From IMG/VR virus record IMGVR_UViG_3300021185_003947: a stretch of DNA of 64,000 bases, one strand, 5' to 3'. Made by a program: the position numbers and the translations under genes. A model generated the notes under the pieces. It saw nothing but the letters and a program-made list of their open reading frames with translations. It was not told where the DNA came from and made no database searches. The stretch's first letter is position 1. Each line of letters begins with the position of its first letter. This document shows positions 34,601 to 60,866 of the stretch, piece after piece. The DNA is from a virus (taxonomy: Duplodnaviria > Caudoviricetes).

Positions 34601-37600
34601 ATTAAGACCGCCGATGTGAAGTGTAGCACCACTATCAATATTTACATCACCATGAATATCTAATGTATAATTTCTATTAAAGCCAGAATTATAAATTGTA
34701 GAATTACCATGTGCCACCTGCGCAGTTTTACCAATCATAATATTGGTATTATTTAAACCTTTATTAACAAGAGCGCTATCAAAAAGACTTGATCCAGAAT
34801 CGTTAAAAATTGCTGGCTTCATAATCACAATGCCGTTTTCTAATCCTGTAGGGATAAACGCATTTCCACCTATGAAAGTTGTATTTTTAGCCCCACCGCC
34901 AGTTATTCCACCATATTGTGGATTTACATTATTAACTGAATGTGAATCTTTCCAACCAGCACCAATAATATAATTGTTAGTAAAATTATCATGGAAAACT
35001 TCGTTACTTTCACCAAATATGAAATTTTGATTTCCATTTGTATAAAGAGTATTACTTGTTCCTATTACATAAGATTTATTTGTACTTCTTACTGTAGAAG
35101 CATTTGCTAATCCGAACAAATTATCTCTACCTATAGTATAAAGATCTGTTCCACTATTCATTGAGTCTTGAATATTATTTTGGCCAAGGAATAGATTATT
35201 ATCTGTTAAAATAATATTTTCTTTACCGATAGCAATACTGTTTCTACCTTGTGTAGTGGTAGCAGTGCCTCTAAATACTATATTTCCTTGACTTCTTCTT
35301 TGTCCAACTTTATTTTTTTCGCCAAGAGATATAGAGTTTTTACCTCTAGCATAAGGTTCTTCACCCATACCTATAGAGAAGATTCCTAAATCAGAATTTA
35401 CATGCTCATCAAGTAAAACCTTACCGGCTCTAATAAGTCCAGCTCTTGAACTATACATAAACATATTATTATATGTGTTACCTGGGAAGGTTCCGGCAGA
35501 ATCAAATATAGCAGAATCTGTGGATGCATAAGTTAATAGCGTAGTTCCATCAACTTGGAAATCACCTCTAATATCAAATTCTGTATTAGGAGTCGTTTTT
35601 CCAACACCAACATTCCTTGGTGTTTCCATAAGAATAAATTCTCCATTGTCTTCAAATGGATTGCCGGCGATTGGAGACCCGCCGAGCGGATTTAATTTCA
35701 TTACGTCCCCGCCGTAAAGAATATCACCGCCTACAAATAAATTACCAGCACCTTTAACAGATGGATCAAACATATCAGATTCTCTACCAATCGATACGTT
35801 ACCACCTTGAATAGCTAAAAGATTTTCATCATCAACTTGACCCACAATATTCCGAAGTGTATTAGCCGGATCTTGACCAGCGCCTGGAGTTGCTGTTGAT
35901 GGTCTTAAACTAATATTCATGCTGTTATTAGCAACAACCTTACCGCCGCCACCAATAGCAAACGAGTTAGCTCCCTGAATAACTTGATCATGGCCTATAG
36001 CAAACGATGTATTACCAGAAACTTTATTATTAAAACCAAAAGCAAACGCCAAAGTTCCGCTAACTGAATCTAAAGCACCAAATATAAATGATGATTGTCC
36101 GTCAGCTATATTATCAATACCAATTATATTATTGTTATTGCCACCAAGCGACCTATTTCCTGCACCAATTAACAATGTGCTATTACCAGATGGTAAAGCC
36201 ATATTGTTTTTACCAAACATATAGCTTGCATTTCCAGCAGTAGTATTATTATGGCCAATCAGAACACTATTAATACCAATTGTTGTTGCAAACCCACCAC
36301 TTCGATCTGAGTTTTCAATTCCTATTAATACATTATTCCCACCTTTAACTATATTGCGCTGGCCCATAGCAATTGAATTAGTGGCGCCGGTGTTAACACT
36401 ACTACTATCACCTACAACAAAACTAAAATCACCTTTAGCTTTAACATTTTTGCCAAATGCTACGGAATAAGTACCAATATCGTTCCAGCTGTAATCGTTA
36501 TGATTTGTAAAATAGCCGCCGCGAGTTGCAGCTTTACCCGGAATAAATGAAAACCTTGAACCTTTATCTGAATCTATATCAGCTTCATCATAATTAGCTA
36601 AACCACTATATATAGTTTTTGCATCTAGATGCATTGATATCTCACCTGAAGTTTGGGGAGAATAGCCAGCATCTGTATTAAGTGGACCTTTAACTTGGAA
36701 TGGGCCACCATGTACTTCAAATCGTGCTTTAGATCTAGTAGTTCCTACACCTATTCTACCAAATCCTCCAGATGGATATGTAGCAGTAAAATCTCTTGGC
36801 TCAAAATAAGCATTATCTATATTATCAGATGTAAATAGACCGCCGCCAGTAAACGGAATTCCGTTTTGCATAAGAGAACCGGTGAAGTTAATAGTACCAT
36901 CTTTATGAACTTCAAATAAAGAGCTATCTTCAAGAGACATTGCTCTTATTAGAACTGATACATCTGAATCGTTTGCAGCATTAACACCATCTCCAGGAAA
37001 TCTTCTAATCGATGCCCCGTCTGCTTTTGATATATCACTTTTAAAATAGTTGATAGGTAAAGTAGATTGTAAATAGTGTCTACCCTGTGAGTCTTTTCCA
37101 GCGTGAGAAGCACTTATTTTTAAACCATAAAAATCTCTTGTTTGAGCTGAATCAGGAAAATATACTGAGTTAGCATCAAAATTATTTCTTAATTCAGGTC
37201 TATATTTGTAAGATCCAATTTTTACTCCGGATGCATCGATATTACCAGTTGATTTATGAACAATAAATCTATTCCATCCAGAGTCTTGCGCAACTTGTTT
37301 TGCTGTCATAAGACCATCAAAAGAAGCACCCGCCGCTAAACCGTAATAGAAAGATTGATGTTCGCCAAAATGTAATTCGCCGCCTTGAATTGAGTCGCTT
37401 AATCCTACAGTTAAAAGCGCACCAGGCACTAAAGAGTTAACTCTGAGTTTATCAAACACAGCTGGTGCATATGATATAACTTCACCGGTTGGTAAAATAG
37501 TTAATCCTGTATTTACTCCTTGTGTTGCTCCAATCCGTAATCCATTAGTTGAATCATATAAAAAGTCAGAATCGCCTTGTAAAGAAAAATCAGGTCCTAC

Positions 37601-39236: not shown

Positions 39237-39626
39237 CTATGTTGTTACTTGAGGAGAAAGTGTTAATTTTCCTTCTAGTATTCTTTCAACTACACCTAAT
39301 CCTGTATTACTATCTGTTCCTTCTAACTCAACATCATACACGTATCTACCAGCTTTCATACGGGTTGTTTGTGCATTTGTTAATGATAGTTGTAAAATAT
39401 TTTCTTGATTAAGTGGGTTAAATGCTGTAACGTTAAATAATTCAGCTGAATCTGTAGAATTATAGCTTTTTTTAATCTTACCTCTCATAAGATAATATGA
39501 TCCAAACGAACCAGCATCTGAATCCCAATTGATTAAAAGTTTCCTACTTCCATCAGGATTAAATAATTCAAGTTGGATAGTAACGTCTGATCCTTGGTCG
39601 ATTGTTAAGTCTTCGTAGTGTGCCAT
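39237..39626 (-). CDS. Small beta-sandwich-like structural protein
   Basis: LTIDQGSD...GRYVYDVEL...RILEG pattern typical of fibre-adjacent proteins in T4-like phages; second Met chosen because of the GAGG RBS. Confidence 0.65.
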   Translation of the reverse strand: MAHYEDLTIDQGSDVTIQLELFNPDGSRKLLINWDSDAGSFGSYYLMRGKIKKSYNSTDSAELFNVTAFNPLNQENILQLSLTNAQTTRMKAGRYVYDVELEGTDSNTGLGVVERILEGKLTLSPQVTT

Positions 39627-39650
39627 ACCCACCTCTTATCTATTTTACTG

Positions 39651-39658
39651 TATTTATA
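39651..39658 (-). promoter_or_regulatory. T4 late promoter TATAAATA (second copy at 39704-39711)
   Basis: Two exact consensus copies in the divergent intergenic region. Confidence 0.8.
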
Positions 39659-39743
39659 ATGCTTTACACATGTAGGTGCAAGCAGAATAATGATCTATTC
39701 TGCTATTTATATATTTTTATTTTCAAAAAGTTGAAAATAGTCC

Positions 39744-39772
39744 TTTACAATCGCTCAAAAATGTGTTATAAA
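39744..39772 (+). promoter_or_regulatory. sigma70-type early promoter TTTACA-N17-TATAAA with TG extended -10
   Basis: -35 at 39744-39749, -10 at 39767-39772; AAGGAG RBS follows. Confidence 0.85.
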
Positions 39773-39796
39773 GGTATTAACAAAGGAGACTACCAA

Positions 39797-40318
39797 ATGG
39801 AACAGATCATTTCAAACTTAGAAAATGTCTTTACCGATCTCGATAAAAAATTCACCGAAGGGCAAATCGAATGGGCCTTAGGACGGAAAGTAGCTCTTAA
39901 AGAATGGCGGATGGATAACATCCTCGGACATCATTATGGTGCAAAAGTAAATAAAGGTTACAAAAATTGGGGTAGAGATAGCTGGGGTTTCTACGAAGAA
40001 ATGTTTCGGATTTGCGGCGGTAAAGGTCACTATAACACAATCACTCAAAATAACAATGCAGGAATTACTCAGATATTTGAAAAGAACTGCAAAAAAACAA
40101 TTGAAGCAAGAAATGCTAAAGTAGCTAAAAAGCTGGAAAAATTCGGTATCACAGAAGTTAAAGACTCAAATATTTCTAAAACCTCAGATGGTTTTCACGG
40201 CGTCTTTAATGTAGAAACAGACAAAGGAAACAAGCGGATTGAAATCGATACAATCTTAGCTGGCGGATATAACATCCAATGTCTTCACCTTCGTACTCTA
40301 GTAAAAATGAAGAAATGA
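39797..40318 (+). CDS. Hypothetical early protein (173 aa), the only supported + strand gene
   Basis: AAGGAG RBS before the ATG at 39797, own promoter and terminator; C-terminal AGGYNIQCLHLR motif. Confidence 0.85.
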   Translation: MEQIISNLENVFTDLDKKFTEGQIEWALGRKVALKEWRMDNILGHHYGAKVNKGYKNWGRDSWGFYEEMFRICGGKGHYNTITQNNNAGITQIFEKNCKKTIEARNAKVAKKLEKFGITEVKDSNISKTSDGFHGVFNVETDKGNKRIEIDTILAGGYNIQCLHLRTLVKMKK

Positions 40319-40348: not shown

Positions 40349-40374
40349 AAAGAGCTCTCAGGAGCTCTTTTTTT
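40349..40374 (+). terminator. Intrinsic terminator, probably bidirectional, between convergent genes
   Basis: AAAGAGCTC-TCAG-GAGCTCTTT followed by TTTT; overlaps the stop of the convergent minus-strand gene. Confidence 0.8.
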
Positions 40375-40933
40375 GTTTAATAAAAATATCGACTGGAACA
40401 GCTAGTCTAAGATTAGAGTGATATGTTTTTACTAGATGATAAACATATCCTGGCATAATTATCACATCACTAGTTTTAGGTGCGTACTCAATAGGTTTAA
40501 ACATTTCAGTGGTTTTACCAAAATAACCTCTGTTAGCATTTGCTCTTGGATCGTACGCTACTAGCTCTCCACCTTTATCAATATCATCAGCAAGAACATA
40601 AAATACTGCAGCAAACTGAGCTCCGGAATGATTATGAATATTCATTGAATATCCCTTTTGAGATCCTGTTAACCAAGAACTAAATTCATAAGACATATCG
40701 TTTAAATCACTATTAAATACTTCTTTAAAAAATTCTGAATATTTTTCTATAGCCAAATCTTTTAATAATGGAATTTTATCTGTCAGTGTACCGCTGTCGT
40801 ATTCAGCCTGTGGTTTCATAATATTAGTACTAAGTAAAATCTCTTGAACTAATTCTTCGCATTGGTCTGAAGTAATTTGAGTTTTGTATATTGGTGTGGA
40901 CCAACACTGATTAATACCCGATTTCAACATCAT
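40358..40933 (-). CDS. Putative Fe(II)/2OG oxygenase (TIGR02466/PF13759-like)
   Basis: HNHSG...AVFYV...GGEL...DPR...PGYVYHLV. Confidence 0.8.
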   Translation of the reverse strand: MMLKSGINQCWSTPIYKTQITSDQCEELVQEILLSTNIMKPQAEYDSGTLTDKIPLLKDLAIEKYSEFFKEVFNSDLNDMSYEFSSWLTGSQKGYSMNIHNHSGAQFAAVFYVLADDIDKGGELVAYDPRANANRGYFGKTTEMFKPIEYAPKTSDVIIMPGYVYHLVKTYHSNLRLAVPVDIFIKQKKSS

Positions 40934-41315
40934 AATATCCTTTTATGTCACGAACCATACCATGAATTACCATCAGTGGCCAATCTATATTGTTGAGTAT
41001 ACTATCGTATATTTCTTTACTATTTTTATATGTTTTAAAATATGGATCATTACCAGCTAAAAGCATTGGATCATTTAACAAATCATAAAAATCTTCATTG
41101 AAGTCTTTACTAATCCAATAAGCATAGCATATTGCTACAACATAACTCTTGGCTGGATATAGCCATTCATCTACTTTTTCATTAAAGTGTCGAATAGCAT
41201 TTTTAATAATAACCTCTTGATTATCATCAAAAACTATTTCTACTTTATTTAAATCATCTGTATGATCTTTATTTAATCTATGGTAAACTTCTTGTTTAAC
41301 TTGCCATTCTTTCAT
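40911..41315 (-). CDS. Hypothetical protein of the radical SAM island
   Basis: 134-aa ORF overlapping both neighbours. Confidence 0.8.
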   Translation of the reverse strand: MKEWQVKQEVYHRLNKDHTDDLNKVEIVFDDNQEVIIKNAIRHFNEKVDEWLYPAKSYVVAICYAYWISKDFNEDFYDLLNDPMLLAGNDPYFKTYKNSKEIYDSILNNIDWPLMVIHGMVRDIKGYYDVEIGY

Positions 41316-42204
41316 GATACCAATCCAATAATCCTCTATATCCGTTACAGCTATTATTTAAATCTTTGACATATCGATAATGCTCTGTTAAGCAGTTTCC
41401 AAAATACTTACATGAAGCACATATAGGACTTATCATTTCTTCTTTTTCTTTATTTGTCCAATCAATGTATTGTTCCCAAGAATCCAATTCAAGAAAGAAT
41501 TCTTTATCCTCTTCATCAAATTCCAAGACACCAAATTTGCCAGAAGGAGTGATGTATATATGATCATCCGAAAATGCATTGTATCTTCCTTTCATTGATT
41601 CTATAATTCTGTCTTCATTTACAAATTCAAACTTCATAGTGTCTTTTAATTTAAGCCACTTTATAACAAAATCTTCAAAGTCTTTGTGTGTCACATTGTG
41701 AGCATTTGCTTGATTAATTGAATATGGTTTAATCTCAACAGATGTAATTGACGAACACATATTCAACATATTAATCATTTCAGATACATCTTTTTCTAAC
41801 ACCTTTGGAGAAGCTAAAACCAAAACTGCAATAGGTACTGTACTCATTAACATATTATTAAATACAAGTTCAGACTTTTCTCTTGCTTCAAAATCATATG
41901 AAACAGAAAGATATACATCATCATCAAAAAAGCCTGGATGCATCATAGAATAATTTGTGTTGATGCTAATTTTACCTGAATAGTATTTTTTTATAACATC
42001 TTTAATGCCATAAAAATATGACTTTTTCATTGCGCCAACTTCGCCGCCGTATAAGTCAATATGTTCAATATTATGTACCTGAGATAGCAATATGTCTAGT
42101 TTATTGAACGAAATTTGTTTTTGATCTCCAAGTTGCTTAGTAGATAGGTAACAAAAATCACATCTAAAATTACAAAAATATGAAGGATTGATCGATACGA
42201 TCAT
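41296..42204 (-). CDS. Radical SAM protein with C-terminal Cys cluster (SPASM/twitch-like)
   Basis: CNFRCDFC, YGGE, C-terminal CASCKYFGNC...C. Confidence 0.92.
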   Translation of the reverse strand: MIVSINPSYFCNFRCDFCYLSTKQLGDQKQISFNKLDILLSQVHNIEHIDLYGGEVGAMKKSYFYGIKDVIKKYYSGKISINTNYSMMHPGFFDDDVYLSVSYDFEAREKSELVFNNMLMSTVPIAVLVLASPKVLEKDVSEMINMLNMCSSITSVEIKPYSINQANAHNVTHKDFEDFVIKWLKLKDTMKFEFVNEDRIIESMKGRYNAFSDDHIYITPSGKFGVLEFDEEDKEFFLELDSWEQYIDWTNKEKEEMISPICASCKYFGNCLTEHYRYVKDLNNSCNGYRGLLDWYHERMAS

Positions 42205-42815
42205 TACCTGGCCGGAAAGGAAATATTCATTACTACTGCAAGTCTATCTTCTTCACCATAATAAGGAGTTACTTCATGCCATACATGTGCCGGAACAATA
42301 ATAATTGTATTTTTTTCAGTCTCAATAGACATTTTAGATTTAGGTCTTGTTTTTATAACCTGGTTAAATGCTGGGTCATGAAAAATTAATTTGCCACCAT
42401 CTTTATCATTATCTACACAGTCTAAATAATAAACCGCAACCATTGAAGCACCACTATGACAATGCAAACCTTTATAATCACCATTTCTCATAAAGGGCAA
42501 TCTTCCGGTGGTCAATTCCATCCGTTCTAAAATTTCGGCATGTGTAATTGATTCATCATATTCATTAGCTAGTTTTAAAAATGACTTTGCAAAAAAATCA
42601 TATAAACTTTTTATTTCATTATAATTTTTAATATTATCATCTGTAAATAACGGGATATGCACTCCATCATCTCCACCATCTTGATATGAAAGACCGGCCA
42701 TAGCTAAATGATTTCTAAATATTGCTTGACATACTGAATTAAGTGTACTACTTTCTTCTTCATTAATATCATGCAATTCATGTAACATTTTTATTGGAAA
42801 AATAGTTTTTATCAT
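42204..42815 (-). CDS. Putative Fe(II)/2OG oxygenase (TIGR02466/PF13759-like)
   Basis: HCHSG..VAVYY...GGKLIFHDP...PAHVWHEV...R. Confidence 0.8.
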   Translation of the reverse strand: MIKTIFPIKMLHELHDINEEESSTLNSVCQAIFRNHLAMAGLSYQDGGDDGVHIPLFTDDNIKNYNEIKSLYDFFAKSFLKLANEYDESITHAEILERMELTTGRLPFMRNGDYKGLHCHSGASMVAVYYLDCVDNDKDGGKLIFHDPAFNQVIKTRPKSKMSIETEKNTIIIVPAHVWHEVTPYYGEEDRLAVVMNISFPAR

Positions 42816-43846
42816 GCGTATTCCCTCTCATACGGCGTCAATTGTCTATCGATGCTATTTATACTGATTATATCAGTTGCTAAAGTCTTCATATGTTTAC
42901 AATGATCTTCTACCATATTATGCTGTTTTAAATCTTTAATAGTTTTTTTACATCCATTACAAATTTCAAACATAGGACAAGTATAACATGCATTTTTTAA
43001 ACTCATTAAACTTAAATCTGTTGCAAGAGGTGTTGAAAACCCACCACTCATTTCGTAATCAAAATCAATAGCCTTATCTAAATCATCGCCAAATGCACCA
43101 CATGAATAGTAGTCACCTTCAGGTTGAAGTGTCCGAATGCCAGAATCGCATGTTCTTGTTTGTGGACATATAGTAGATTCTCCTCTTAGTCGTACCATCA
43201 TCTGTTGAGTGTTATGTTCCCAATCGCTTAATCCAGCTTTCCATATTTCAACATAACGTTCATATATTTTCGATAATTGATATGGAGCAGACTGAGAACC
43301 TGATGCCATAGCATAATTTACTTTACAGACTACATCCATTTTCTTTGCAAGTTCAACTGTCTTAATATGAGTATCTTCATTCTCTTCAACAATAACTGCT
43401 ATGAATGAAGGTCTATACCCAACATGTTCAACCATTGCATCTGAACACTTCCAAAAATCTTCTTCTGTAAATTCACTATAATCACCTTTTAATCTCCCTC
43501 CTCCATATTGAAATGATGTAGCTACACCAACTCGAGGATGGTTAAAAAGTTTTTTCCATTTCATTGGTTTCATAAGAAATGGATATAAATTTGTTGTAAG
43601 TGATATTGTTGCAGGCAGCTCATGCTTATCAAGATACTCTATAATTTTCCAATAGTAATTTGGTTTCATCATTAATGGATCGCCACCATTAACAATAATT
43701 GTTTGAGTATCTGGAAAACGTTTTAAAAACTTAAATATTTTATTTAAATCAAGAGTAGCAGTATTATCTTCAAACGTAATTTTAGATGATGAACAAAATG
43801 AACATTTAAAATTACACAATTCTGTTGGTTTGACAATTAGGTCCAT
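42812..43846 (-). CDS. Radical SAM/SPASM protein
   Basis: CNFKCSFC, GGDPL, CPQTRTC...YSC, CYTCPMFEICNGC. Confidence 0.95.
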   Translation of the reverse strand: MDLIVKPTELCNFKCSFCSSSKITFEDNTATLDLNKIFKFLKRFPDTQTIIVNGGDPLMMKPNYYWKIIEYLDKHELPATISLTTNLYPFLMKPMKWKKLFNHPRVGVATSFQYGGGRLKGDYSEFTEEDFWKCSDAMVEHVGYRPSFIAVIVEENEDTHIKTVELAKKMDVVCKVNYAMASGSQSAPYQLSKIYERYVEIWKAGLSDWEHNTQQMMVRLRGESTICPQTRTCDSGIRTLQPEGDYYSCGAFGDDLDKAIDFDYEMSGGFSTPLATDLSLMSLKNACYTCPMFEICNGCKKTIKDLKQHNMVEDHCKHMKTLATDIISINSIDRQLTPYEREYA

Positions 43847-44382
43847 GGCGAATTGCTAACTTTAAACCCAAAATTCATAGTGATTCTGTGCATATCAGGA
43901 TCTCTGAAATGTTCAACTCTGTGTTCGAACTGTTTATCTTGGCTTCCTACTACTACATCATATTTTTGAGGTAAATGAAAGGCTGTGATTCTATTATTTT
44001 GTGATATATTTCTAAACATAATTTCACCACCAGCGTCTTTATTCATATCAGTAAAATATAAAAGAAACATTATATTTGCACCTTCACAAAAATCATTATG
44101 CCAATGACATGAAGTTTGTTCGGTGCCATTCCAACAATGATAATAAATCAAATCTTGTTTTTCTGAATATGGTTTTAAATAATGATTAAAAAGATAATCA
44201 GCAGTCATTAGCATTTTCTTTCGCATACCCAATATATAATAATTTAAAGGAAATCGATAATCTTTTCTATTACCAATACCTCTAAGCCATTTTATATTAG
44301 GAATAGTATCTTCTAAATATTGAAACGCTCGAACGTTATTTTCTGTGTAAAATCCATCATCCATTTTCCAACCATTTTTCAT
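43837..44382 (-). CDS. Fe(II)/2OG oxygenase (prolyl-hydroxylase-like fold)
   Basis: H-N-D (WHND), LLYF, GGEI, distal EHRV and R. Confidence 0.8.
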   Translation of the reverse strand: MKNGWKMDDGFYTENNVRAFQYLEDTIPNIKWLRGIGNRKDYRFPLNYYILGMRKKMLMTADYLFNHYLKPYSEKQDLIYYHCWNGTEQTSCHWHNDFCEGANIMFLLYFTDMNKDAGGEIMFRNISQNNRITAFHLPQKYDVVVGSQDKQFEHRVEHFRDPDMHRITMNFGFKVSNSPWT

Positions 44383-45524
44383 AGCATTTTTACCTTTTGT
44401 CTAAATCCATATGATAAATCATCTTCACCATCACGTTTTGGTTTAAATCCCTTTGTTTTTTTAACGTAGTTAAACGTTTCTTTAAAAACACATTCTTCCA
44501 TATCATTGTGATCACCTGGCATATCAGCTTTTACAAAGCATGTGAATGGACAGTTTTCATAATATTCACACTCAAAACAATTATATTTTTTTAAAAACTT
44601 TTCTACCATCTCTCCTGTTTCAAATAGTGTTTCACCAGTTTTTTTATCTCGCTGATATGCTACACCACAACATCCACCGGGTGATGAACCATCAGGTTGA
44701 ATAGTTATTGAATTACCTCTTGTGCACATCATTGCACCAGTTTGATTCAATGGATCATGAAATGCATCCATATTTTCGCACTCAGGATAGTTATCTACTA
44801 AATATTTATTGAATGCTAATAACTCACTGTCTTTAGGAATTAATTTTGCATCTGCTTTAATTAATGGCGATGGCATATAAGCATCAAAATCAACTGGGAA
44901 GTTTTTATACAAATAATCAAAAGTGCTTTTATCGTTACTTTTTATAATTGTTTGTACATTTTGGCTAGTAGTAACAATTGAAACGTTTCTAATATAATCT
45001 TTAAAAGTCTCAACATTTTCTAAGAATATTTCTAGTTGACCTTTGTTAAATCTACCTCTTGGATCATAAGAAGTTGAAAGCTTTACATCGTGCTTATTAC
45101 AAAAGTCCATAACCTTATCTGAATTTTTTTTGTCAAACATAAAATTAGTAAGATAATTAAAATAAATTCTTTTGTCACCAATGTTAATCTTGGATTTGAC
45201 TAAGTCCATAAATTCTTCATATACATCTAAAAAGCCTTTTTCAATCCATAGATCTTCAAATAATTCTCCACCTAATAGATGTAATTTATAGTCTTTTGAT
45301 CTTGGCGAATTGTTAATAAATTTAGCAACAGTATCGCTTTTTGCTAAAATTTCTTCTCGAGTAGCTCCAACCATTGAGTTATGATCTTGTGGACAAAACA
45401 CACATTTTAAATTACAATGTTCAAAGAATATTATAACAAGTTCACTTGATCGAGTAATCTTGCTTCCTAAGATTTTGTATATATCAAAATCAAGTGGAGC
45501 TGGATTAATAGGTGCTACAGACAT
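44379..45524 (-). CDS. Radical SAM/SPASM-like protein
   Basis: CNLKCVFC, LGGE, CTRG...GCC, CFECEYYENCPFTC. Confidence 0.92.
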   Translation of the reverse strand: MSVAPINPAPLDFDIYKILGSKITRSSELVIIFFEHCNLKCVFCPQDHNSMVGATREEILAKSDTVAKFINNSPRSKDYKLHLLGGELFEDLWIEKGFLDVYEEFMDLVKSKINIGDKRIYFNYLTNFMFDKKNSDKVMDFCNKHDVKLSTSYDPRGRFNKGQLEIFLENVETFKDYIRNVSIVTTSQNVQTIIKSNDKSTFDYLYKNFPVDFDAYMPSPLIKADAKLIPKDSELLAFNKYLVDNYPECENMDAFHDPLNQTGAMMCTRGNSITIQPDGSSPGGCCGVAYQRDKKTGETLFETGEMVEKFLKKYNCFECEYYENCPFTCFVKADMPGDHNDMEECVFKETFNYVKKTKGFKPKRDGEDDLSYGFRQKVKML

Positions 45525-47185
45525 TCTTTACTTACCTCTGACATAATTATATGTCTATTTTTTTCTATAAATTTATTTATAGTATTTGCTCTAAACTCTT
45601 GATTTAAAACTTTAATGCTTTTTGGTTGAGAATTTGGATTAAATATATCTCTTATTTCAGAATGTATATCATCCCATCTATCTAATTTACTTATAGCTTC
45701 ATATGCTTTTTTAGTAAAGACTGATGGCGATATGCTATTTTCAAGCATAGGATAAAAGTGCTGCAATAAATAATTTCCAGCACTATTCATAAACCACATT
45801 TCATGCATTTCTTCAATTGTAAACGAAAAGCACGATGATATTGTTTTGAAATACGATTTTTTATTTTTGTACAAATTATTCCAGCTATCAATTCCCTGTT
45901 CATCCGCAATATCAGTATAAACTTCAACTGTTCGAATATCATATTTAATTTTATATTCCTGAGAATTAAGCGCTGAATCCGGAAGAAACATATAATCATG
46001 TCTATAAGAACCAAACGATTTAAAATTCCAGATATATTCCATTTCATTATAAAAGTCTTCTATTGTAGAACCTGGCATTGCAAGGATCATTTCTAAATTA
46101 GGTATCGGAAACCCATGCTTTGAACATTGCTCATTAATGTGTTTACTTAATTTTAATTTATCTTCTGTATTTAAATCAACTCTTTCAGCTATTTTCATTG
46201 CAATGTCAGAACTGCTTTGAATAGACACTGATGGAACTATCGATATATTGGCCATCTCACTCCACATATCTTTTCCATTTTTCATATTTGGAGAAGTGTA
46301 ATTTGTTCCAACAATTTCAAAATACTTATCAATTAATTTTTTTCTTCTATTTAAATCCTTAGATTTCATGGTAGAAATATCAGTTAAATTAAAACCATTT
46401 GTCCAAGCATATTCGAATATTTCAAAGTCTCTTTCAAAAAAAGCTCCAAAGTTTGCATCATTTAAATAAGCAGATCTATAACCGGCTTTTAGCATAGCAT
46501 TGATATCACGTTTTACTATGTCCAAGGATTTCTTATAAATCTTTGTATTAATACCTCCACCCCATTCGCAAAATACACACTTATAAGGACAACCTCTTGT
46601 TGTCTCTAAAACAATAAACGGTTCCATTTTATTATTACGAGCGTATTTAAGTAATTTTGTAAGATATTCTAAATGATCTTCGTATACTGAATAATCTTCT
46701 TTTGATAAATCATGTATGAATTTTACATCAGATCTTAATTCCCATGGAATACTTGTTGGATCTATTCTGTTTTCAATAAACTGATCGATAAGCTCAGCCA
46801 TAAATGGCTCACCTGGTTTAGTAGGTCTACAAATTAAATCATACTGAGGACGTGATGCTAATAGTTCTGGTTCATTGGTTCCAATATGTGGACCACCTAA
46901 AACTAGTATTTTTTCTGGATATTTATTTTTAATTTTATTAGAAATTTCATCACATATCATATAGTTCCAAGTATAAGAAGAAAACATAATTATATCTGCT
47001 TCAATTATATCATTTATTACTTCATCATAAGATTTATAGCTATTCCATTTATATGGTGATTCTAACCACTTTACTTTTTTACTGTATTTGCCAAAACGAG
47101 AATAGTAACTTTGCATTAATAAAAATGTAAAGTTATTTGCTAGTGACCAGTCAGCGTGAGGAGGATTAATAAATGCTATAATCAT
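45515..47185 (-). CDS. Cobalamin-binding radical SAM protein (class B methyltransferase-like)
   Basis: N-terminal Rossmann-like FSSYTWN...LGGPH, ETTRGCPYKCVFCEWG, DANFG. Confidence 0.88.
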   Translation of the reverse strand: MIIAFINPPHADWSLANNFTFLLMQSYYSRFGKYSKKVKWLESPYKWNSYKSYDEVINDIIEADIIMFSSYTWNYMICDEISNKIKNKYPEKILVLGGPHIGTNEPELLASRPQYDLICRPTKPGEPFMAELIDQFIENRIDPTSIPWELRSDVKFIHDLSKEDYSVYEDHLEYLTKLLKYARNNKMEPFIVLETTRGCPYKCVFCEWGGGINTKIYKKSLDIVKRDINAMLKAGYRSAYLNDANFGAFFERDFEIFEYAWTNGFNLTDISTMKSKDLNRRKKLIDKYFEIVGTNYTSPNMKNGKDMWSEMANISIVPSVSIQSSSDIAMKIAERVDLNTEDKLKLSKHINEQCSKHGFPIPNLEMILAMPGSTIEDFYNEMEYIWNFKSFGSYRHDYMFLPDSALNSQEYKIKYDIRTVEVYTDIADEQGIDSWNNLYKNKKSYFKTISSCFSFTIEEMHEMWFMNSAGNYLLQHFYPMLENSISPSVFTKKAYEAISKLDRWDDIHSEIRDIFNPNSQPKSIKVLNQEFRANTINKFIEKNRHIIMSEVSKECL

Positions 47186-47218
47186 ACTTCATTCTATACA
47201 TTACAAATTAAAAAATAT

Positions 47219-48349
47219 TTAAACTGTTACATATTTAGCAATAGTTGTTTTATCAGAAACAGAATTAGCATCTAGTAGCGAATGAATTAAATAATGATTT
47301 ACAGTTTCAAGTTCTAATGCAAAGAATTTTTCAGGTTCTTTATCATCTGATGATTCAATTAAAATAAGCTTATCTAATAGTTCATCTGTTAATTCAGTAT
47401 TAATTGCTGGTAAGAATTCTAATATGCTATCATCTCTTAAAGTAAAATCAGACCATTGACTTTCTATAATAGCTACAAACTCTTTAATAGTATTAAGATC
47501 TGAATCAGAAATATTTTCGAATATTACATTATCACTACTAGAAGCGCCACTTAGATATTTTATAGACCACATATCGTCTTTAATAAACAGTTGAGCAAAT
47601 TTAGAAGTATCTGTAAAAATGTCATTAATATTATTTAATGTGTAAGTTTTGTCTAAATTTAATTTATTAGCAAAAGATTTAGTTAAGAAATGTTGAAAAA
47701 ATATTTCTTTTAATTCGTAAAGATATTGTTCAAACACTTTTTTCAGCAAAGGTTTAACTACACCTTTTAACTCTGCTTTTGAAGATTTGTCATTAAGATA
47801 ATTTGCTAGTAGATGTTCAACACTTATTGTGCTTTTATATTTTACCATAAACGCTTTTTTCTTGGCGGCTGAAGGGGCTTTAACACTATCATAAATGGTA
47901 TTGAAATTTTCTACTTTTAAAATTTCACCAGATCCTAATTTTGCATTATTACTTGAAAACCTGCCTCTAAAAAATGTATTAAATTTAAAAGCATGTGCTT
48001 TTACTAATGATTCTACTGAATCAGCTTTCGGAGTTTTTAAAATAAATTTATACCAAGTAGACATAATAAATTGAAATGCTGCACTATCGCAATAAACAAC
48101 GATTCTTTTATTTGTAGAATCACATTTGGCAGCTAATTCATCAAAAAGAGTTGTAGCATCTTTAAACGTTTTATCTTTTCCTAGAATATCATTCCATTCA
48201 AGTCCATATGCAATGAGTTGACCAGATAATATTTTTTGAAGATCTTCTAAAAGATTAAAACCGTTACTTTGCGATACAACAATACGATCAAAATTTGGAT
48301 CGATGATATTATCTGTTGTTACATAAATCTTCTTAAACAGATGTATCAT
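47219..48349 (-). CDS. Hypothetical protein of the radical SAM island
   Basis: 376-aa ORF coupled to the upstream gene; no family recognised. Confidence 0.85.
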   Translation of the reverse strand: MIHLFKKIYVTTDNIIDPNFDRIVVSQSNGFNLLEDLQKILSGQLIAYGLEWNDILGKDKTFKDATTLFDELAAKCDSTNKRIVVYCDSAAFQFIMSTWYKFILKTPKADSVESLVKAHAFKFNTFFRGRFSSNNAKLGSGEILKVENFNTIYDSVKAPSAAKKKAFMVKYKSTISVEHLLANYLNDKSSKAELKGVVKPLLKKVFEQYLYELKEIFFQHFLTKSFANKLNLDKTYTLNNINDIFTDTSKFAQLFIKDDMWSIKYLSGASSSDNVIFENISDSDLNTIKEFVAIIESQWSDFTLRDDSILEFLPAINTELTDELLDKLILIESSDDKEPEKFFALELETVNHYLIHSLLDANSVSDKTTIAKYVTV

Positions 48350-48993
48350 AACTGTTCTCCTGTGGCGATTGAACTTGTTAGTAAAAACATTGGGTTATTA
48401 ACATTCGCCCAATAACTAAATAGATTATTTCCTTTAAACATATACTCATTAAAATATGATTTATAATATGTTTTATGATGTTCAATTACATTGGCATAAA
48501 ATAAATAAAAGCTTTCGTATTTAAGTAAATTTACAAAATTTATTCCAGTTAAATCTTTTGTATCATCTTCTGGAAATGATTTAACGTAGTCTTTTAATTC
48601 ATCACATTCAACAGTGTACAAATTATAAAGCGAAAGTGAATCTAATTTCTTAGCCCAAGTAGTAAGTATTTCAACGTTATCATCAATAAAATCTTTTTCT
48701 ATTAACTCACTAATACCTTTCATCTGCAATAATAAACTAATTACTCTTTCTTCAAGAATAGGAATACTTATAATAAAATTAGCTAAAAGATATTCTCTAG
48801 TAAGATCATCAAAATCTTTCTGATCAGTAAAACCAATATTGCATGGCAATTCCAGATTACTGAGATATGTTAATAGCTTTGTTCCCTGCAATTGTGAATT
48901 TTCATAATCAACCATATAAAAAGTTTGATCATCTTCAAAATACAATTTCAAATCTTCAATACTAAATGGTGCAGTAACATCAATAACTTTCAT
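48346..48993 (-). CDS. Hypothetical protein of the radical SAM island
   Basis: Likely start MKVIDV at 48993, forming an ATGA overlap with the stop of the CHxS-repeat gene. Confidence 0.8.
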   Translation of the reverse strand: MKVIDVTAPFSIEDLKLYFEDDQTFYMVDYENSQLQGTKLLTYLSNLELPCNIGFTDQKDFDDLTREYLLANFIISIPILEERVISLLLQMKGISELIEKDFIDDNVEILTTWAKKLDSLSLYNLYTVECDELKDYVKSFPEDDTKDLTGINFVNLLKYESFYLFYANVIEHHKTYYKSYFNEYMFKGNNLFSYWANVNNPMFLLTSSIATGEQL

Positions 48994-49553
48994 CTTCTTC
49001 CTCTCGAGCCATGACAACTGCTATGACAACTTGCATGACAAATATTAATATTTACAGTAACAGTATTGGAAACTAAACTATTAAAACGGGTCTGTAAGTC
49101 TGTAAATTTAGCTTCAAGACCAGAAGCACTAATTTGAGTACCAGCAGTTAAAGTAACTCCAGCCGCAGATAATGTTTGTGCATAACTACTGTTTAAATAA
49201 GCTTTTCGTGTTTGATTAAAAATTTGTCCAGGATTAGGATATGTTCCTGTATTACCACCAGGGCCTGTTACTGTTCGGGTTGCCTTTAAATTTCTAATTT
49301 GACTATACGCCGCGGTTTCATTTTCAATTGCAGTATTGATAACAGAAGCAGTGATTGGATTTTGATTTATATCGGCTCCAGTAATTCCAATGCTCCGACC
49401 AGCAGTCGTTCCACCAAAATATGATGTAGAAAATCCACTAAACGGAACTGAATTAGTACCCCAAACAATACCAGAGTTTGCACTTGCCGGTGCAAAATCC
49501 GCAAATCTATCTATTATATTCTGTGCGCTAATTGGACTTGTTAGTGTAGCCAT
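48990..49553 (-). CDS. Putative modification target/precursor: T/S/A/G/N-rich protein ending CHASCHSSCHGSRGRR
   Basis: All three Cys and all three His lie in the last 16 residues; own late promoter; GAGG RBS; surrounded by radical SAM genes. Confidence 0.75.
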   Translation of the reverse strand: MATLTSPISAQNIIDRFADFAPASANSGIVWGTNSVPFSGFSTSYFGGTTAGRSIGITGADINQNPITASVINTAIENETAAYSQIRNLKATRTVTGPGGNTGTYPNPGQIFNQTRKAYLNSSYAQTLSAAGVTLTAGTQISASGLEAKFTDLQTRFNSLVSNTVTVNINICHASCHSSCHGSRGRR

Positions 49554-49579
49554 TTCATTCCTCTTTTGTTATATACGTG

Positions 49580-49587
49580 TATTTATA
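49580..49587 (-). promoter_or_regulatory. T4 late promoter TATAAATA driving the CHxS-repeat gene
   Basis: Exact consensus overlapping the stop codon of the upstream radical SAM gene. Confidence 0.8.
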
Positions 49588-50602
49588 CATGTTTTGCGAG
49601 TTCCATCATTAAACTTTTTGGTGCACCACAAATATCTCCATCCCATCCTAATTGATGACAATCACCTCCACAAAATCTAGATACAGGGCAAGATAAACAA
49701 TTAGGATTACGCATTTTTTCTTCTAATATAGTACGAATTCTTTTTGGACTTTTTAACAATGTATCAATTGAATCGTCTAAACTTCCAAAGGCTTGTTCTG
49801 GCGCGCTGTTTGGACATCCTGCAATAGTACCATTGCCGTTTATTGTAAATAGCTTTTGTTCACAATCTCTACAAAAAGTTCCACATGTAGTCATAGTCTT
49901 TTCAAACTTAGCATATACATTTTCTAGAAAGTCGTTTTCAAACCAATCTCGTGCTCCGTGCTCTTCACTTTGCATGTGCATTTTTAAAAAATATTCATCA
50001 AGTTCTTTATTGCTTGGAAATATTTCTGATGCTTCTCGGGCACTACCATTATTAGTTAGTCTTTCCAGTGAAACTTCTTGCACACCAAGTCGGCGGCACC
50101 ATCTTAATAATACTATGGGATCTTTTGCAAGCGTATCTTTTGTAAGACTAATAAACAAACGAATAGTAACACCATCTGCCAAAAGTGTTTTAACATTTTT
50201 ATGCCAAAGATTATATTGGTTTTTATTTTCAAATCGAATCTTACGATCCCACGATGTGCCAAGTCTATTTCCAAGAGGACCTTTAATAAAATCCATATGC
50301 TGATCTTTTAATTTAAAAACTAAATTAGTTGTGGCACCCCACGACATTTGATCCCATAAACCATCACATGCATCATATACCTTTCGCATTTGGCCAACCG
50401 GCACAAGAAACGGTTCACCGCCATGAAATTCCATATGTATAGAATCTTGTGCTGCAGGTTTTTCTTTTCTAAATCTATGAATCCAGTCAACTAGCTTATC
50501 AGTATTCCAATAAATCTTTTGACCACTTCTTCCGCTTGTAAAACAATGCGCACAATTAAGCTGACATGTTTCTGTTGTTTTGAGATACATCAGCCAGTTC
50601 AT
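49583..50602 (-). CDS. Radical SAM/SPASM peptide-maturase-like protein
   Basis: CQLNCAHC, FHGGEP, CGTFCRDC...GCPN, CLSCPVSRFCGGDC...C. Confidence 0.95.
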   Translation of the reverse strand: MNWLMYLKTTETCQLNCAHCFTSGRSGQKIYWNTDKLVDWIHRFRKEKPAAQDSIHMEFHGGEPFLVPVGQMRKVYDACDGLWDQMSWGATTNLVFKLKDQHMDFIKGPLGNRLGTSWDRKIRFENKNQYNLWHKNVKTLLADGVTIRLFISLTKDTLAKDPIVLLRWCRRLGVQEVSLERLTNNGSAREASEIFPSNKELDEYFLKMHMQSEEHGARDWFENDFLENVYAKFEKTMTTCGTFCRDCEQKLFTINGNGTIAGCPNSAPEQAFGSLDDSIDTLLKSPKRIRTILEEKMRNPNCLSCPVSRFCGGDCHQLGWDGDICGAPKSLMMELAKHV

Positions 50603-51083
50603 TATTAATTTTATCCTCTGTATAATTTTCTAAACCAAAGCTTAAAGTTAATGCTTCATCTTTATTTAATGCTTGATGAGGCGTATAAGCTGGTATATGT
50701 ATATATTCTCCTTGAATAATAGTCACTGGCTTATCATCAATTATTAAAGACTTAGATCCTTCACAGCAATATATAACAACATCATCTGGATCGGTATGCA
50801 TATCAAAAGAATAAGACCCAGCCATTGCAAAAAATAAATGACATGTAACATGTTGTTCATGTTTCCAATCAGTTTTTATTTTCCAACAATATTCATATAT
50901 TGTTGAATTAAAGTTTTCCATACGTTCGATTTTTATAGAATGGTTTTGTTTTTGTACTTTACAAAAATCACTGAAACTAGTAATTAGCTGTTCACGACCC
51001 TGTTCATCTATAGCATAAACCATATTTTGTTCATACATATGATTTGCAGTAAGTGCAGATATGAGTTGAGATTTATTAATCAT
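50556..51083 (-). CDS. JmjC/cupin-4-like Fe(II)/2OG oxygenase
   Basis: SFDMHTDPDDV...EGSK...YIHIPAYTPHQA (HxD...H triad). Confidence 0.82.
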   Translation of the reverse strand: MINKSQLISALTANHMYEQNMVYAIDEQGREQLITSFSDFCKVQKQNHSIKIERMENFNSTIYEYCWKIKTDWKHEQHVTCHLFFAMAGSYSFDMHTDPDDVVIYCCEGSKSLIIDDKPVTIIQGEYIHIPAYTPHQALNKDEALTLSFGLENYTEDKINNELADVSQNNRNMSA

Positions 51084-51089
51084 TATTTA

Positions 51090-51118
51090 ATTATATACTA
51101 TTTTTAATTAAATGTAAA
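51090..51118 (-). promoter_or_regulatory. sigma70-type early promoter TTTACA-N17-TATAAT, probably leaderless transcript
   Basis: -35 at 51113-51118, -10 at 51090-51095, ATG only 6 nt further on, no Shine-Dalgarno. Confidence 0.75.
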
Positions 51119-58189: not shown

Positions 58190-59599
58190 TTATAGTTGGA
58201 TGATGACTTTAATGTCTTCGGATTGGTTTGCAGTTCGTTGAACTGATGCTCTATTATCTAGATATAATACATCTCCAGTTAATCTATCAACTTCAGCGTT
58301 ATTATCAAATGATTCCATTACACCTTCACCATTTCCATCTACTTCTTGAATAGTTTCACCTACATTAAATAATTTAAATCCTGTATCAGGAGATTGATGA
58401 TAGTGAATTCTTGTTCCACCTGAAACACTTGAATCTACGTTATCTATATATGCTTGTGCACTTGAGCTTACACCTTTAATTTTACGATCTTTACTAAATG
58501 CAATAGTATAAGAAGATAATTTCATATTTCTTGTAGCTATGCCAGTAAGCTCTGTAAAGAGACCTGTAGAATCAGGTTGAAGTGGATTTTTAATAAGACC
58601 AACTTGTCTAAAATCCTGAGATAAAATAAAATCATCATCAGCATCTAAAATTTTAGATCTAAACATTACTGCATCAGCTTTTAAATCTTTTCTAGCGTCA
58701 AATCCAAATCCTGGAGTTGGACCTACAACTGGCCTTGCTCGTGCACTATCTCCACCAGATCCATCTGGTAAAATAATAAGTTCAGCATAATCATAACTAT
58801 CTAAATAATTTAAAGTAGAGCCAGCTGATTTAGTTTGAATTGCTGTAATTGTTCCATTATCTGAGTCAATAATAGGTTTTAAAAAGTTTGCGGCGGAATC
58901 ACCAAATGTTAATGTACCGTTACCTCTAATAACAAGATTAGGAATTGCGCCGGCAGTGCCATATCCACTACCACCGTTTGTCATTACAAATGAAGTGATT
59001 CTACCTGGTACAGCATTTTGCTGAATTTCATATTGTTTAATTTCAATACCAGTAGAATTAGAATCAGGTGCAGTTTCTTGAATATGAACAGGCATATATT
59101 GAGAAGATAAAAAGAAATTTGCTTTCAAAGCACTGATTGTATAAAGAAATTTCCATACATAACCATCAGATGTAGAAAACGGCGCAACATTTTCATTGCC
59201 ACTAGGTTTAACAAGAGATGGTTGTGGGACTCCTTGTTTATTTACACCCGTTCTTAAACAAATATATACTCCAAAATTATCTGTTAAAACATAATATCTT
59301 TTACCAACACTTAAACTTCCTGCTCGTCGGTCATCCCATTGTGGATAAATTGTTCCATATACCCAATCTTGTCTTGGTACAATAAAACTGGCTGCTTCTA
59401 CTTTTTTAACAGATTGAAGTTTTTCTTTAAAATCAATTGCATCAAATTTTGAGTTTAATGGGGTGGTAGCGGCATCATTACTATCCCATTGTTCAGATCT
59501 GCCAATTCCAATATAATACTCATTACCAGCTGAATTATAATCAGCTAATAACTCTTTTAAAATATTGTGTTTTAAATCATCAGTGACGATAGCTACCAT
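58190..59599 (-). CDS. gp8: Baseplate wedge subunit
   Basis: YYIGIGRSEQW, YVLTDNFGVYICL, DGYVWKFLYTI, DFRQVGLIKNP, GDVLYLDNR. Confidence 0.9.
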   Translation of the reverse strand: MVAIVTDDLKHNILKELLADYNSAGNEYYIGIGRSEQWDSNDAATTPLNSKFDAIDFKEKLQSVKKVEAASFIVPRQDWVYGTIYPQWDDRRAGSLSVGKRYYVLTDNFGVYICLRTGVNKQGVPQPSLVKPSGNENVAPFSTSDGYVWKFLYTISALKANFFLSSQYMPVHIQETAPDSNSTGIEIKQYEIQQNAVPGRITSFVMTNGGSGYGTAGAIPNLVIRGNGTLTFGDSAANFLKPIIDSDNGTITAIQTKSAGSTLNYLDSYDYAELIILPDGSGGDSARARPVVGPTPGFGFDARKDLKADAVMFRSKILDADDDFILSQDFRQVGLIKNPLQPDSTGLFTELTGIATRNMKLSSYTIAFSKDRKIKGVSSSAQAYIDNVDSSVSGGTRIHYHQSPDTGFKLFNVGETIQEVDGNGEGVMESFDNNAEVDRLTGDVLYLDNRASVQRTANQSEDIKVIIQL

Positions 59600-59664
59600 A
59601 GTTTATTTCCTATCTTAATATGTTCAAATTGTAATACTAAAAATATTAATTCTGTTGTTGGTTA

Positions 59665-59672
59665 TATTTATA
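59665..59672 (-). promoter_or_regulatory. T4 late promoter TATAAATA
   Basis: Exact consensus upstream of gp8. Confidence 0.85.
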
Positions 59673-59685
59673 TAGTTTTTTGCCT

Positions 59686-60864: not shown

Positions 60865-60866
60865 TA

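Follow-up and report, generated by a model that had tools for sequence, protein, structure and literature searches.

A phage gene cassette of radical S-adenosylmethionine enzymes and oxygenases built around a protein with a conserved Cys-His-x-Ser tail

We analyzed a stretch of 64,000 nucleotides (hereafter the window) from a virus of the Caudoviricetes (Duplodnaviria; IMG/VR record IMGVR_UViG_3300021185_003947). The minus strand of the window carries a cassette of 13 translationally coupled open reading frames (ORFs), which fills positions 40358-51083 (10.7 kb) and is named A to M in the order of transcription (Table 1). Neighboring ORFs of the cassette either overlap by 1-47 nt or are separated by gaps of 29-33 nt. 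The cassette encodes a JmjC/cupin oxygenase, four radical S-adenosylmethionine (rSAM) enzymes of the SPASM/twitch type, one cobalamin-type rSAM enzyme, three 2-oxoglutarate (2OG) oxygenases, three proteins of no known family and one protein, C, that ends in a tail of Cys-His-x-Ser repeats. A T4-like structural module surrounds the cassette: fibre-like genes flank it at either end, and further downstream come genes for the neck, sheath, terminase, portal and major head proteins. An earlier reading made from the letters of the window alone (the sequence-only reading) had described a coupled same-strand cluster of five rSAM enzymes and four iron oxygenases around a CHxS-repeat protein, placed among baseplate and fibre genes. 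All 13 ORFs were found where that reading had put them, and the structural module on both sides agrees with the placement.

Table 1. Coordinates of the cassette genes and of other features in the window (loci, presence among 58 complete IMG/VR loci; SAM, S-adenosylmethionine)
Feature	Position	Strand	Length (aa)	Loci (of 58)	Remarks
A, JmjC/cupin Fe(II) oxygenase	50556..51083	-	175	54	core; Cupin_2 and JmjC_2 above cut-offs
B, radical-SAM/SPASM	49583..50602	-	339	58	core; directly upstream of the tailed gene
C, tailed protein	48990..49553	-	187		ends CHASCHSSCHGSRGRR; no other Cys or His
Tail of C, CHASCHSSCHGSRGRR	48993..49040	-	16		C-terminus of C; presumed modification site
D, no known family	48346..49017	-	223	50	PHROG 20767 at 7.6e-54; probable start 48993
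E, no known family	47219..48349	-	376	37	accessory; weak homologue RSL2 ORF069
F, cobalamin-type (putative class B) radical-SAM	45515..47185	-	556	30	accessory; B12-binding + radical-SAM
G, radical-SAM/SPASM-like	44379..45524	-	381	56	core; Fer4_12 above cut-off
H, 2OG-Fe(II) oxygenase	43837..44382	-	181	48	accessory; family-level PF13640
I, radical-SAM/SPASM	42812..43846	-	344	58	core, most conserved component; Radical_SAM 37.4 bits, above cut-off
J, 2OG-Fe(II) oxygenase	42204..42815	-	203	12	rare accessory; PF13759 39.7 bits vs cut-off 27
K, radical-SAM	41296..42204	-	302	58	core; PHROG 1802 at 4.7e-29; CX3CX2C + 4 conserved Cys
L, no known family	40911..41315	-	134	58	core, follows K; PHROG 20737 at 7e-38
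M, 2OG-Fe(II) oxygenase	40358..40933	-	191	43	frequent accessory; PF13759 37.7 bits vs cut-off 27
Sigma-70-like promoter, TTTACA-17-TATAAT, 11/12	51090..51118	-			sole gap upstream of gene A
T4-type late promoter motif TATAAATA	49580..49587	-			27 nt before the start of C; overlaps the stop of B
Palindromic GC-containing hairpin	40349..40370	.			at the cassette's 3' end; separates M from the convergent plus-strand ORF
Tail-fibre-assembly-like gene	39237-39632				
Baseplate wedge genes	58190-63236				

The tail of C has the pattern (Cys-His-x-Ser)x3-R-x-R-R, always with exactly three repeats. Among 70 distinct tailed proteins of 125-306 aa, the Cys and His residues at tail positions 1, 2, 5, 6, 9 and 10 and the Arg residues at positions 13, 15 and 16 are invariant, and positions 4, 8 and 12 hold Ser or, less often, Asn or Ala. 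The mean pairwise identity is 0.84 in the tail versus 0.32 in the body. The same tail is found on bodies over the whole range of 125-306 aa, 55 of the 70 bodies being free of Cys. An AlphaFold2 model of C, built with 66 homologues, has an alpha/beta body (predicted local distance difference test score, pLDDT, 84.5; predicted TM-score, pTM, 0.78), and the tail is its only disordered part and is modelled with low confidence. These results suggest that the tail is a modification-site signature, since it is a short, invariant and flexible C-terminal segment on variable bodies with SPASM enzymes encoded beside it.

The body of C has no known fold in structure comparisons (Foldseek against the PDB, best E 0.8; VIA-align, best Z 3.5). 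In BFVD and the AFDB clusters it matches orthologues, including those of the cultured phages DT01 and Atu_ph07 described below, and only three uncharacterised Myoviridae proteins besides. The BFVD entries A0A8S5USJ7, A0A8S5USJ8 and A0A8S5USV2 (Myoviridae sp. ctijX18; 504-660 aa) show the fold of the C body at E values of 4.6e-4 to 8.5e-3, and these may be larger structural proteins with the body domain of C inside. C has no NCBIfam match at E 0.01. Searches with BLAST at both the DNA and the protein level against 50,697 phage records returned nothing for C, because the shared tail is too short for a database of that size.

We then asked how regularly the tail accompanies the enzymes. Enzyme I, not C, served as the probe of IMG/VR, which allowed cassettes lacking C to be found as well. 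Of the 142 loci found, 80 were fetched, among which 58 are complete and 64 contain B. An ORF with the tail (ending C-x3-C-x3-C-x3-R-x-R-R) is present in the fetched DNA of 57 of the 64 B-containing loci. The other seven form a single sub-lineage, where I comes straight after A and B, and D and E are missing. Its better-covered members encode two small tailed proteins in tandem (125-137 aa) instead of one, at a distance of roughly 5 kb (L053, 3477-4237; L077, 3390-4207), and in G002 two tailed genes lie just outside the fetched flank (G002:C1:24244-24992). Thus, clusters of this kind do not commonly lack the tailed protein, a co-occurrence that the sequence-only reading had proposed as a check on itself. 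B, I, K and L are present in every complete locus, and 17 loci resemble the window in having at least five rSAM enzymes and at least four oxygenases. When C itself was the query, 396 clusters at 90% identity were obtained; the majority are marine metagenomic, and the contigs reach 206 kb.

The cassette is also present in cultured jumbo phages. Protein searches with D and B identified it in the Rak2-like phages Atu_ph07 (Agrobacterium) and Phosso (Sinorhizobium), in the Ralstonia phages RSL2, RSF1 and RsoM3USA together with the Burkholderia phages FLC6, FLC8 and SURPRISE13, and in the phiKZ-like Pseudomonas phage pPa_SNUABM_DT01 (DT01). In Atu_ph07, RSL2, Phosso and DT01, the gene after the first rSAM gene encodes a protein with the same tail. 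Atu_ph07 gp170 ends CHSSCHASCHNSRSRR and RSL2 ORF068 ends CHSSCHTSCHGSRGRR, and the Phosso and DT01 homologues align with C of the window to the last residue. According to BLASTP, A, B, C, D, G, I and K are common to all four of these phages, L is matched in Phosso and DT01 only, and F, H and J have no counterpart in any of the four. Compared with the cassettes of cultured jumbo phages, the version in the window is marine and T4-like and adds a B12 rSAM enzyme and two 2OG oxygenases. The cassette lies beside baseplate or fibre genes in the window and in four of five cultured phages (Atu_ph07, Phosso, RSL2 and DT01).

All five rSAM enzymes carry the CX3CX2C motif of the rSAM superfamily (PF04055), which is invariant in alignments of 33-77 homologues, and B, G, I and K have in addition the C-terminal Cys-rich extension of SPASM/twitch enzymes, which holds auxiliary Fe-S clusters and counts about 7 Cys in SPASM and fewer in twitch enzymes. 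Catalytic residues are kept in all nine enzymes of the cassette (alignments of 15-77 homologues each). Only I matches the Pfam Radical_SAM model above its cut-off; F, K and G match below it, and B is recognized through PHROG 1802 and NCBIfam. B has no Pfam match, but it matches PHROG 1802 at 3.8e-58 and the SPASM model TIGR04085 with 35.3 bits (cut-off 27). Eleven Cys residues of B are invariant in 64 homologues, namely those of CX3CX2C and eight C-terminal ones. G matches PHROG 1802 at 2.3e-30 and has six conserved C-terminal Cys residues after CX3CX2C. I has eight such residues beyond CX3CX2C and matches TIGR04085 with 21.8 bits, under the cut-off of 27. K would be a partial SPASM or twitch-like enzyme by its Cys count. 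F has a B12-binding domain followed by a Radical_SAM domain, each just below its Pfam cut-off (29.3 vs 32.1 and 28.4 vs 29.5 bits). The nearest solved structures to F in the PDB are those of two cobalamin methylases, TokK (5e-20) and CysS (1.6e-15), and F matches the KedN5 family at 1.8e-23 with 82.6 bits against a cut-off of 700.

The four enzymes B, G, I and K all belong to PHROG 1802, yet they are deep paralogues: B and I are 27% identical over 91 aa, and G and K show no significant similarity in a pairwise comparison. Each is 30-61% identical to its own orthologue in Rak2-like, phiKZ-like and T4-like phages. Between the window and the cultured phages, the identity is 41-50% for B (BLASTP), 30-33% for G, 45-56% for K, and 53-61% for I with the orthologues of Atu_ph07, Phosso, RSL2 and DT01. 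These results suggest that the four enzymes have four distinct conserved jobs, as they are diverged from one another and each is matched to its own orthologue.

Over their full length, B and I match models of DynA, the anaerobic sulfatase maturase (anSME), PapB, CbpB, DarE, QhpD and HxsB; the best full-length matches of B are DynA, anSME and PapB, all far under the cut-offs of those families. Single-sequence searches of the PDB with B and I gave no match. The sequence-only reading had called the enzymes typical peptide- or protein-modifying types, and these matches to SPASM maturases, the putative class B rSAM enzyme and the JmjC/2OG oxygenases support it. The rSAM genes have also been regarded as auxiliary genes of metabolism or repair (Fe-S clusters, DNA repair, nucleotide or cofactor synthesis), to which the tailed protein would be unrelated: the paper on DT01 links them to DNA repair and host metabolism, Nishimura et al. 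place them among Fe-S related genes, and some N-terminal matches are to models of MoaA, NrdG and viperin. However, the latter matches span only the rSAM core shared by the superfamily (~60-100 residues), whereas the full-length matches are to SPASM maturases, and neither the co-occurrence with the tail nor the location in structural modules would be explained. We consider such a role highly improbable.

Among the oxygenases, A scores 33.2 bits against Cupin_2 (PF07883; cut-off 27.2) and 30.4 bits against JmjC_2 (PF08007; cut-off 22). Its residues H96, D98, H136 and K111 are invariant in 56 homologues and form the HxD...H plus Lys arrangement of JmjC/cupin enzymes. Orthologues of A precede the first rSAM gene in Atu_ph07, Phosso, RSL2 and DT01. 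H, J and M have the iron triad and the basic 2-oxoglutarate residue of 2OG-Fe(II) oxygenases. H has no match of its own, but PF13640 is matched by 17 of 21 members of its family, in which H95, D97, H154 and R166 are invariant. M is also found in DT01 and RSL2. The number of oxygenases per locus ranges from 1 to 5.

Three further proteins belong to the cassette. L family members are widespread, with 283 representatives at 50% identity among 1.84 billion proteins, and the L family has no NCBIfam match. In several proteins of 410-463 aa, L forms the C-terminal part. Inspection of two of these showed fusions of K with L: residues 1-304 of P0125 share 50% identity with K and are followed by L at 310-439, while P0192 shares 27% identity with K and has L at 282-406. 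About six more proteins of this size end in L. The fusions in two divergent lineages indicate that L is a partner domain working with K. D probably starts at 48993, where an ATGA overlap joins it to the stop of the tailed gene. It follows the tailed gene in most lineages, is represented by orthologues in each of the five lineages in culture, and is absent where the tail sits on small bodies of 125-137 aa, so D is more likely tied to the body of C, perhaps to its folding or assembly, than to the tail chemistry. The AlphaFold2 model of D (pLDDT 84) resembles no known fold (Foldseek, best E 0.69; VIA-align, best Z 4.5 over 55 residues), and a prediction of the D-C complex (score 0.00), run without controls, says nothing either way. 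E has no Pfam, PHROG, NCBIfam or PDB match, and the E family as a whole has none in Pfam. Profiles of D, L and E found nothing below E 0.1 among PDB sequences, and look-ups of D and E in the ESM Atlas gave no usable match.

Experimental evidence on the tailed protein comes from Atu_ph07. Its gp170 is listed among the virion proteins identified by electrospray ionization tandem mass spectrometry, with a mass of 31.89 kDa, 8 unique peptides and 35% coverage (PMC6102473, Table S5). The mass that we computed from the translated gene is the same, 31.89 kDa. No enzyme of the cassette is in the virion table, which lacks gp165-169, gp171 and gp172 and includes the neighbors gp176, gp177, gp181 and gp182 (PMC6102473). 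The peptides of gp170 were detected in gel bands 1-9, mostly in band 1 (PMC6102473). Band 1 is the peak of proteins of ~87-127 kDa, so the 32-kDa gp170 appears to run mainly as a much larger species. Its presence in virions fits the claim of the sequence-only reading that the phage modifies one of its own proteins.

No protease or transporter family was found among the 13 cassette genes in scans of Pfam, PHROG and NCBIfam. Since a protease and an exporter are missing from the cassette and virions of Atu_ph07 yielded the body of its homologue, the modified segment is likely to stay on the protein, and the released bioactive peptide that the sequence-only reading had also considered is disfavored. 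Taken together, we think that the cassette probably serves the maturation of the C-terminal tail of a baseplate- or fibre-associated virion protein, with the product remaining on the protein. From the evidence above we infer that the tail is the substrate, which kind of chemistry acts on it, where in the virion the protein sits and what it does there.

The proposed course of events is as follows. C would be made late, from its own T4-type late promoter and with a strong ribosome-binding site, and its tail would be modified in the infected cell. The core machinery would consist of the SPASM/twitch enzymes B, G, I and K, the last with its partner L, and the JmjC-type oxygenase A. In the lineage of the window, F, probably a C-methylase, and H, J and M, probably hydroxylases, would add further changes. 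The core chemistry is likely to be radical C-C or C-S cross-linking at His, Ser and Cys side chains together with hydroxylation. Candidate reactions are thioethers from Cys to carbon, cyclophanes from His to a beta-carbon on His-x-Ser, and oxidation of Cys or Ser, to which JmjC-type hydroxylation of His or Arg may be added. The product would be left uncut, and the protein would be built into the virion near the baseplate or the fibres, where a rigid, basic and possibly metal-binding tail may act at host contact or in particle assembly. The sequence-only reading had proposed crosslinking, methylation and hydroxylation of one protein. The enzyme types agree with that, but methylation and most of the hydroxylations would come from accessory genes, F being confined to about half of the complete loci and the number of oxygenases being as variable as stated above.

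Several points weigh against this interpretation. No family member carries a chemically demonstrated modification, and a recognition domain of the RiPP recognition element (RRE) type was not detected (RiPP, ribosomally made, post-translationally modified peptide). Where the rSAM enzymes match characterised maturases, the scores fall far short of the cut-offs of those families, and homology therefore does not reveal the chemistry. The virion location is known for one distant homologue only, and the late-promoter motif stands ahead of the tail gene in only 13 of 72 relatives. As variable accessories, the B12 rSAM enzyme and the 2OG oxygenases could act on another target. Even without any modification, the Cys/His tail could bind a metal or serve as a disulphide staple. 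Disulphides could explain the shift of gp170 equally well, as the loading buffer lists no reductant (PMC6102473).

These last points lead to another explanation, in which the tail is a plain metal-binding (Zn, Fe or Cu) or disulphide motif, possibly an inter-subunit staple in a fibre-like oligomer, and the enzymes act on some other virion protein, such as the giant proteins nearby, or on a small molecule. Three Cys-His pairs at period four are a credible ligand set, gp170 shifted to the top band in a buffer with no reductant listed, the low model confidence of the tail fits either case, and giant structural proteins are always nearby. Left unexplained would be why four SPASM enzymes track the tail across phage families while the surroundings change, why B abuts or overlaps the tail gene, and why conservation extends beyond the ligand residues to Ser/Asn at positions 4, 8 and 12 and to the R-x-R-R end. 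Furthermore, SPASM enzymes characteristically act on peptide or protein substrates encoded next to them. We therefore regard an unmodified tail as unlikely.

The position of the presumed modification site at the extreme C-terminus also raises the possibility that C is a scaffold, from whose C-terminal residues a small cofactor or metabolite is built and released, as pyrroloquinoline quinone (PQQ) is from PqqA, mycofactocin from MftA, or pearlin-type products; the copy in the virion would then be incidental. PqqE/MftC-type SPASM enzymes are in the same superfamily, and a mix of rSAM enzymes and oxygenases is typical of cofactor and natural-product pathways. However, family scans of the cassette genes found no peptidase, amidase or ligase, C is a conserved folded protein of 125-306 aa that was obtained from purified virions at 35% coverage, and the cassette is embedded in the structural modules of three phage families. 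A scaffold role is accordingly quite improbable in our view, and maturation of a tail that stays on the virion protein is preferred.

The closest characterised analogue, by functional likeness rather than by membership, is the bacterial antiphage system HXS, with the components HxsA/HxsB/HxsC/HxsD (TIGR03976-03979; Li et al., Nat Commun 2026, PMC13128918). HxsB and HxsC, the latter bound by HxsD, mature the HxS-repeat protein HxsA, with a change of +8 Da on the motif SHRSS, and the product blocks phage DNA entry in the periplasm (PMC13128918). In both cases, several rSAM enzymes would mature a folded protein with basic-rich His-x-Ser repeats, and the motif would stay on the protein. Both also pair an rSAM enzyme with a small partner (HxsC-HxsD there, K-L here) and would function at the interface between phage and cell envelope. 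In contrast to the period of three in HXS, the repeats here have a period of four, with an invariant Cys before each His, three C-terminal copies and a terminal R-x-R-R. There are four core rSAM enzymes and a JmjC oxygenase rather than two rSAM enzymes, neither a peptidoglycan-binding domain nor N-terminal processing is evident, and the system is phage-encoded and, in Atu_ph07, carried in the virion. With the NCBIfam models, C gave no match to HxsA, and D, E and the L family gave none to HxsD; B and G score 33.8 and 23.9 bits against HxsB (cut-off 370), and I scores 28.8 bits against HxsC (cut-off 268).

As matured HxS-repeat proteins can be antiphage effectors (PMC13128918), mature C might itself be a non-structural effector that serves host takeover or counter-defence, or is bacteriocin-like, and acts in or on cells. 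In the relative L007 (a 106-kb contig of GCA_013565555.1), the cassette is preceded by small early-type genes, an HNH endonuclease and a DUF454 protein, not by structural genes, so that the position in a structural module is usual but not universal. The tail is also present on nine contigs of metagenome-assembled genomes (MAGs), some of which were binned as Bacteriovoracaceae, Bdellovibrionota or Bacilli; such binning with Bdellovibrio-like and Bacilli MAGs would suit an effector as well. Yet the sole experimental datum is the virion location, the window has the late motif before C and most cassettes have baseplate or fibre neighbors, and family scans found neither a signal peptide in the body of C nor an export gene. 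We consider an effector of this kind very unlikely. A different link with HXS is speculative and rather doubtful: the matured tail could be the phage-side counterpart of the bacterial HXS effector, an rSAM-cross-linked, basic and possibly metal-loaded appendage on a baseplate or ejection protein that acts in the periplasm at DNA entry, where it might guide or shield the incoming genome or counteract HxsA-like barriers. If this were true, rSAM-matured HxS-type proteins would be used by both sides of the phage-host conflict at the same step.

Other known systems share parts of this architecture. In triceptides, a SPASM rSAM enzyme links the ring of an aromatic-X-X motif to the beta-carbon of the third residue. 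At the sequence level only, His-x-Ser/Asn/Ala fits such a motif (XyeB, GrrM/OscB, FxsB, YhhB and AmcB being the relevant enzymes), with three per tail, and Ser, Asn and Ala all have a beta-carbon. With the FxsB, GrrM, YhhB and AmcB-type models, the best scores are 19-28 bits where 310-445 would be required, and most alignments are confined to the first 60-190 residues, which places the enzymes outside these maturase families. Unlike triceptide precursors, C is a folded virion protein without a leader-core arrangement or cleavage, and its invariant Cys residues and the four rSAM enzymes have no counterpart there. QhpD forms Cys-to-carbon thioethers within the protein QhpC, a subunit that is kept in the final assembly, and PapB, like CteB a ranthipeptide/sactipeptide maturase, acts on Cys motifs that recur every four or five residues. 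The PapB and QhpD models align with B over their full length with 40 and 25 bits (cut-offs 340 and 453), a likeness to the QhpD/PapB/CteB group, whereas the tail here has no Asp/Glu acceptors. The tail also shares with the CXXX-repeat system (TIGR04115) Cys residues at period four, and B matches that model over residues 8-66 only, with 37.4 bits against a cut-off of 350, too little for membership.

In the proteusin pathway (polytheonamide), an rSAM epimerase, B12-rSAM C-methylases and an Fe/2OG hydroxylase act repeatedly on one precursor. The mix of enzyme classes is the same here and F resembles the class B methylases, with homology at the superfamily level only. The proteusin product is a released peptide toxin made with a nitrile-hydratase-like leader, whereas the cassette has no leader family and no protease and C is a virion protein. 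In general terms, C may be compared with a RiPP precursor, as a candidate substrate encoded beside maturase-type enzymes, with a conserved core of 16 residues, but the "leader" would be a folded domain of 125-306 aa, and the release that is usual for RiPPs does not apply to a cassette of 13 genes without a protease or transporter and with its Atu_ph07 body in virions. We lean towards an rSAM/SPASM maturation of a gene-encoded substrate that represents a new substrate family in a new biological setting.

Parts of the cassette have been seen before. Papers on FLC6, SURPRISE13, RP12/RP31 and DT01 list cupin, rSAM and 2OG genes, which are left uninterpreted or guessed to be for DNA repair. The paper on the Aeromonas phage 332-Vera calls eight rSAM genes in a structural cluster highly unusual, and Nishimura et al. 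described a T4-like marine genome with 12 rSAM genes. Full-text literature searches found no paper on such a system, and the genome papers do not mention the tailed protein. The statement of the sequence-only reading that no phage system of this architecture has been characterised thus holds, with two amendments: the same architecture lies unremarked in jumbo phages in GenBank, and the bacterial HXS system has been characterised.

Apart from proteolysis, a few cross-links and glycosylation, hardly anything has been explored of how phage particle proteins are chemically altered after translation. In soil, sewage and ocean, large phages by the hundred, belonging to three lineages that are unrelated, keep four oxygen-sensitive rSAM enzymes for sixteen residues of one particle protein, and the selective value must be large. 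If the interpretation is right, the cassette would stand for a class of protein modification not described before, in which the radical reactions at Cys, His and Ser are probably new as well. Its substrates would form a new family that a very simple signature makes easy to mine from genomes. The interpretation would also explain the rSAM clusters called unusual in phage genome papers and may connect to HXS defence. The question is directly testable, since there are four cultured and tractable phage-host pairs, in Agrobacterium, Ralstonia/Burkholderia, Pseudomonas and Sinorhizobium.

The transcription signals of the window hint that the cassette enzymes and their presumed substrate are timed differently, because a late motif stands before C and a sigma-70-like site before A. 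The latter site is the best-scoring one of the region; it is suggestive only, as the total number of such sites is not above chance. The late motif before C is followed by a strong Shine-Dalgarno sequence, AAGAGGA. In the window, 13 of 14 copies of TATAAATA are on the coding strand and most lie 19-66 nt ahead of a start codon, with a total count that is not above chance. Within the cassette the motif precedes three genes, namely C, G (45574-45581) and J (42856-42863). This pattern points to late transcription of the T4 type that also begins at internal sites. Four oligo-dT RNA-seq runs of one marine study contain assembled contigs that match nearly the whole cassette at 99% identity or more; these may include DNA and indicate presence only.

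Some observations concern the neighborhood. A single ORF of 4423 aa is located at 25667-38938 on the minus strand, with a copy of the TATAAATA motif 40 nt upstream. In Atu_ph07 and Phosso, virion structural proteins of ~4450-4555 aa are encoded just upstream of the cassettes. A giant structural protein may thus be a regular neighbor or partner of the tailed protein. Beyond the other end of the cassette, an ORF of 238 aa (39602-40318, plus strand) is convergent with it among long ORFs that are otherwise on the minus strand, and has no Pfam or PHROG family. The hairpin between this ORF and M was called terminator-like on the plus strand; a function on the minus strand would be by extension. Among relatives, five MAG contigs of 178-249 kb (L094-L098) carry the cassette. 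In one of them, L097, the tailed gene is surrounded by six rSAM genes; in another, L096, flanking genes match only PHROGs of unknown function. A 202-kb relative (L006) has a gene for an A-type Fe-S carrier (PF01521; 17013-17342) directly after the cassette, which fits a phage that supplies clusters to its own rSAM enzymes.

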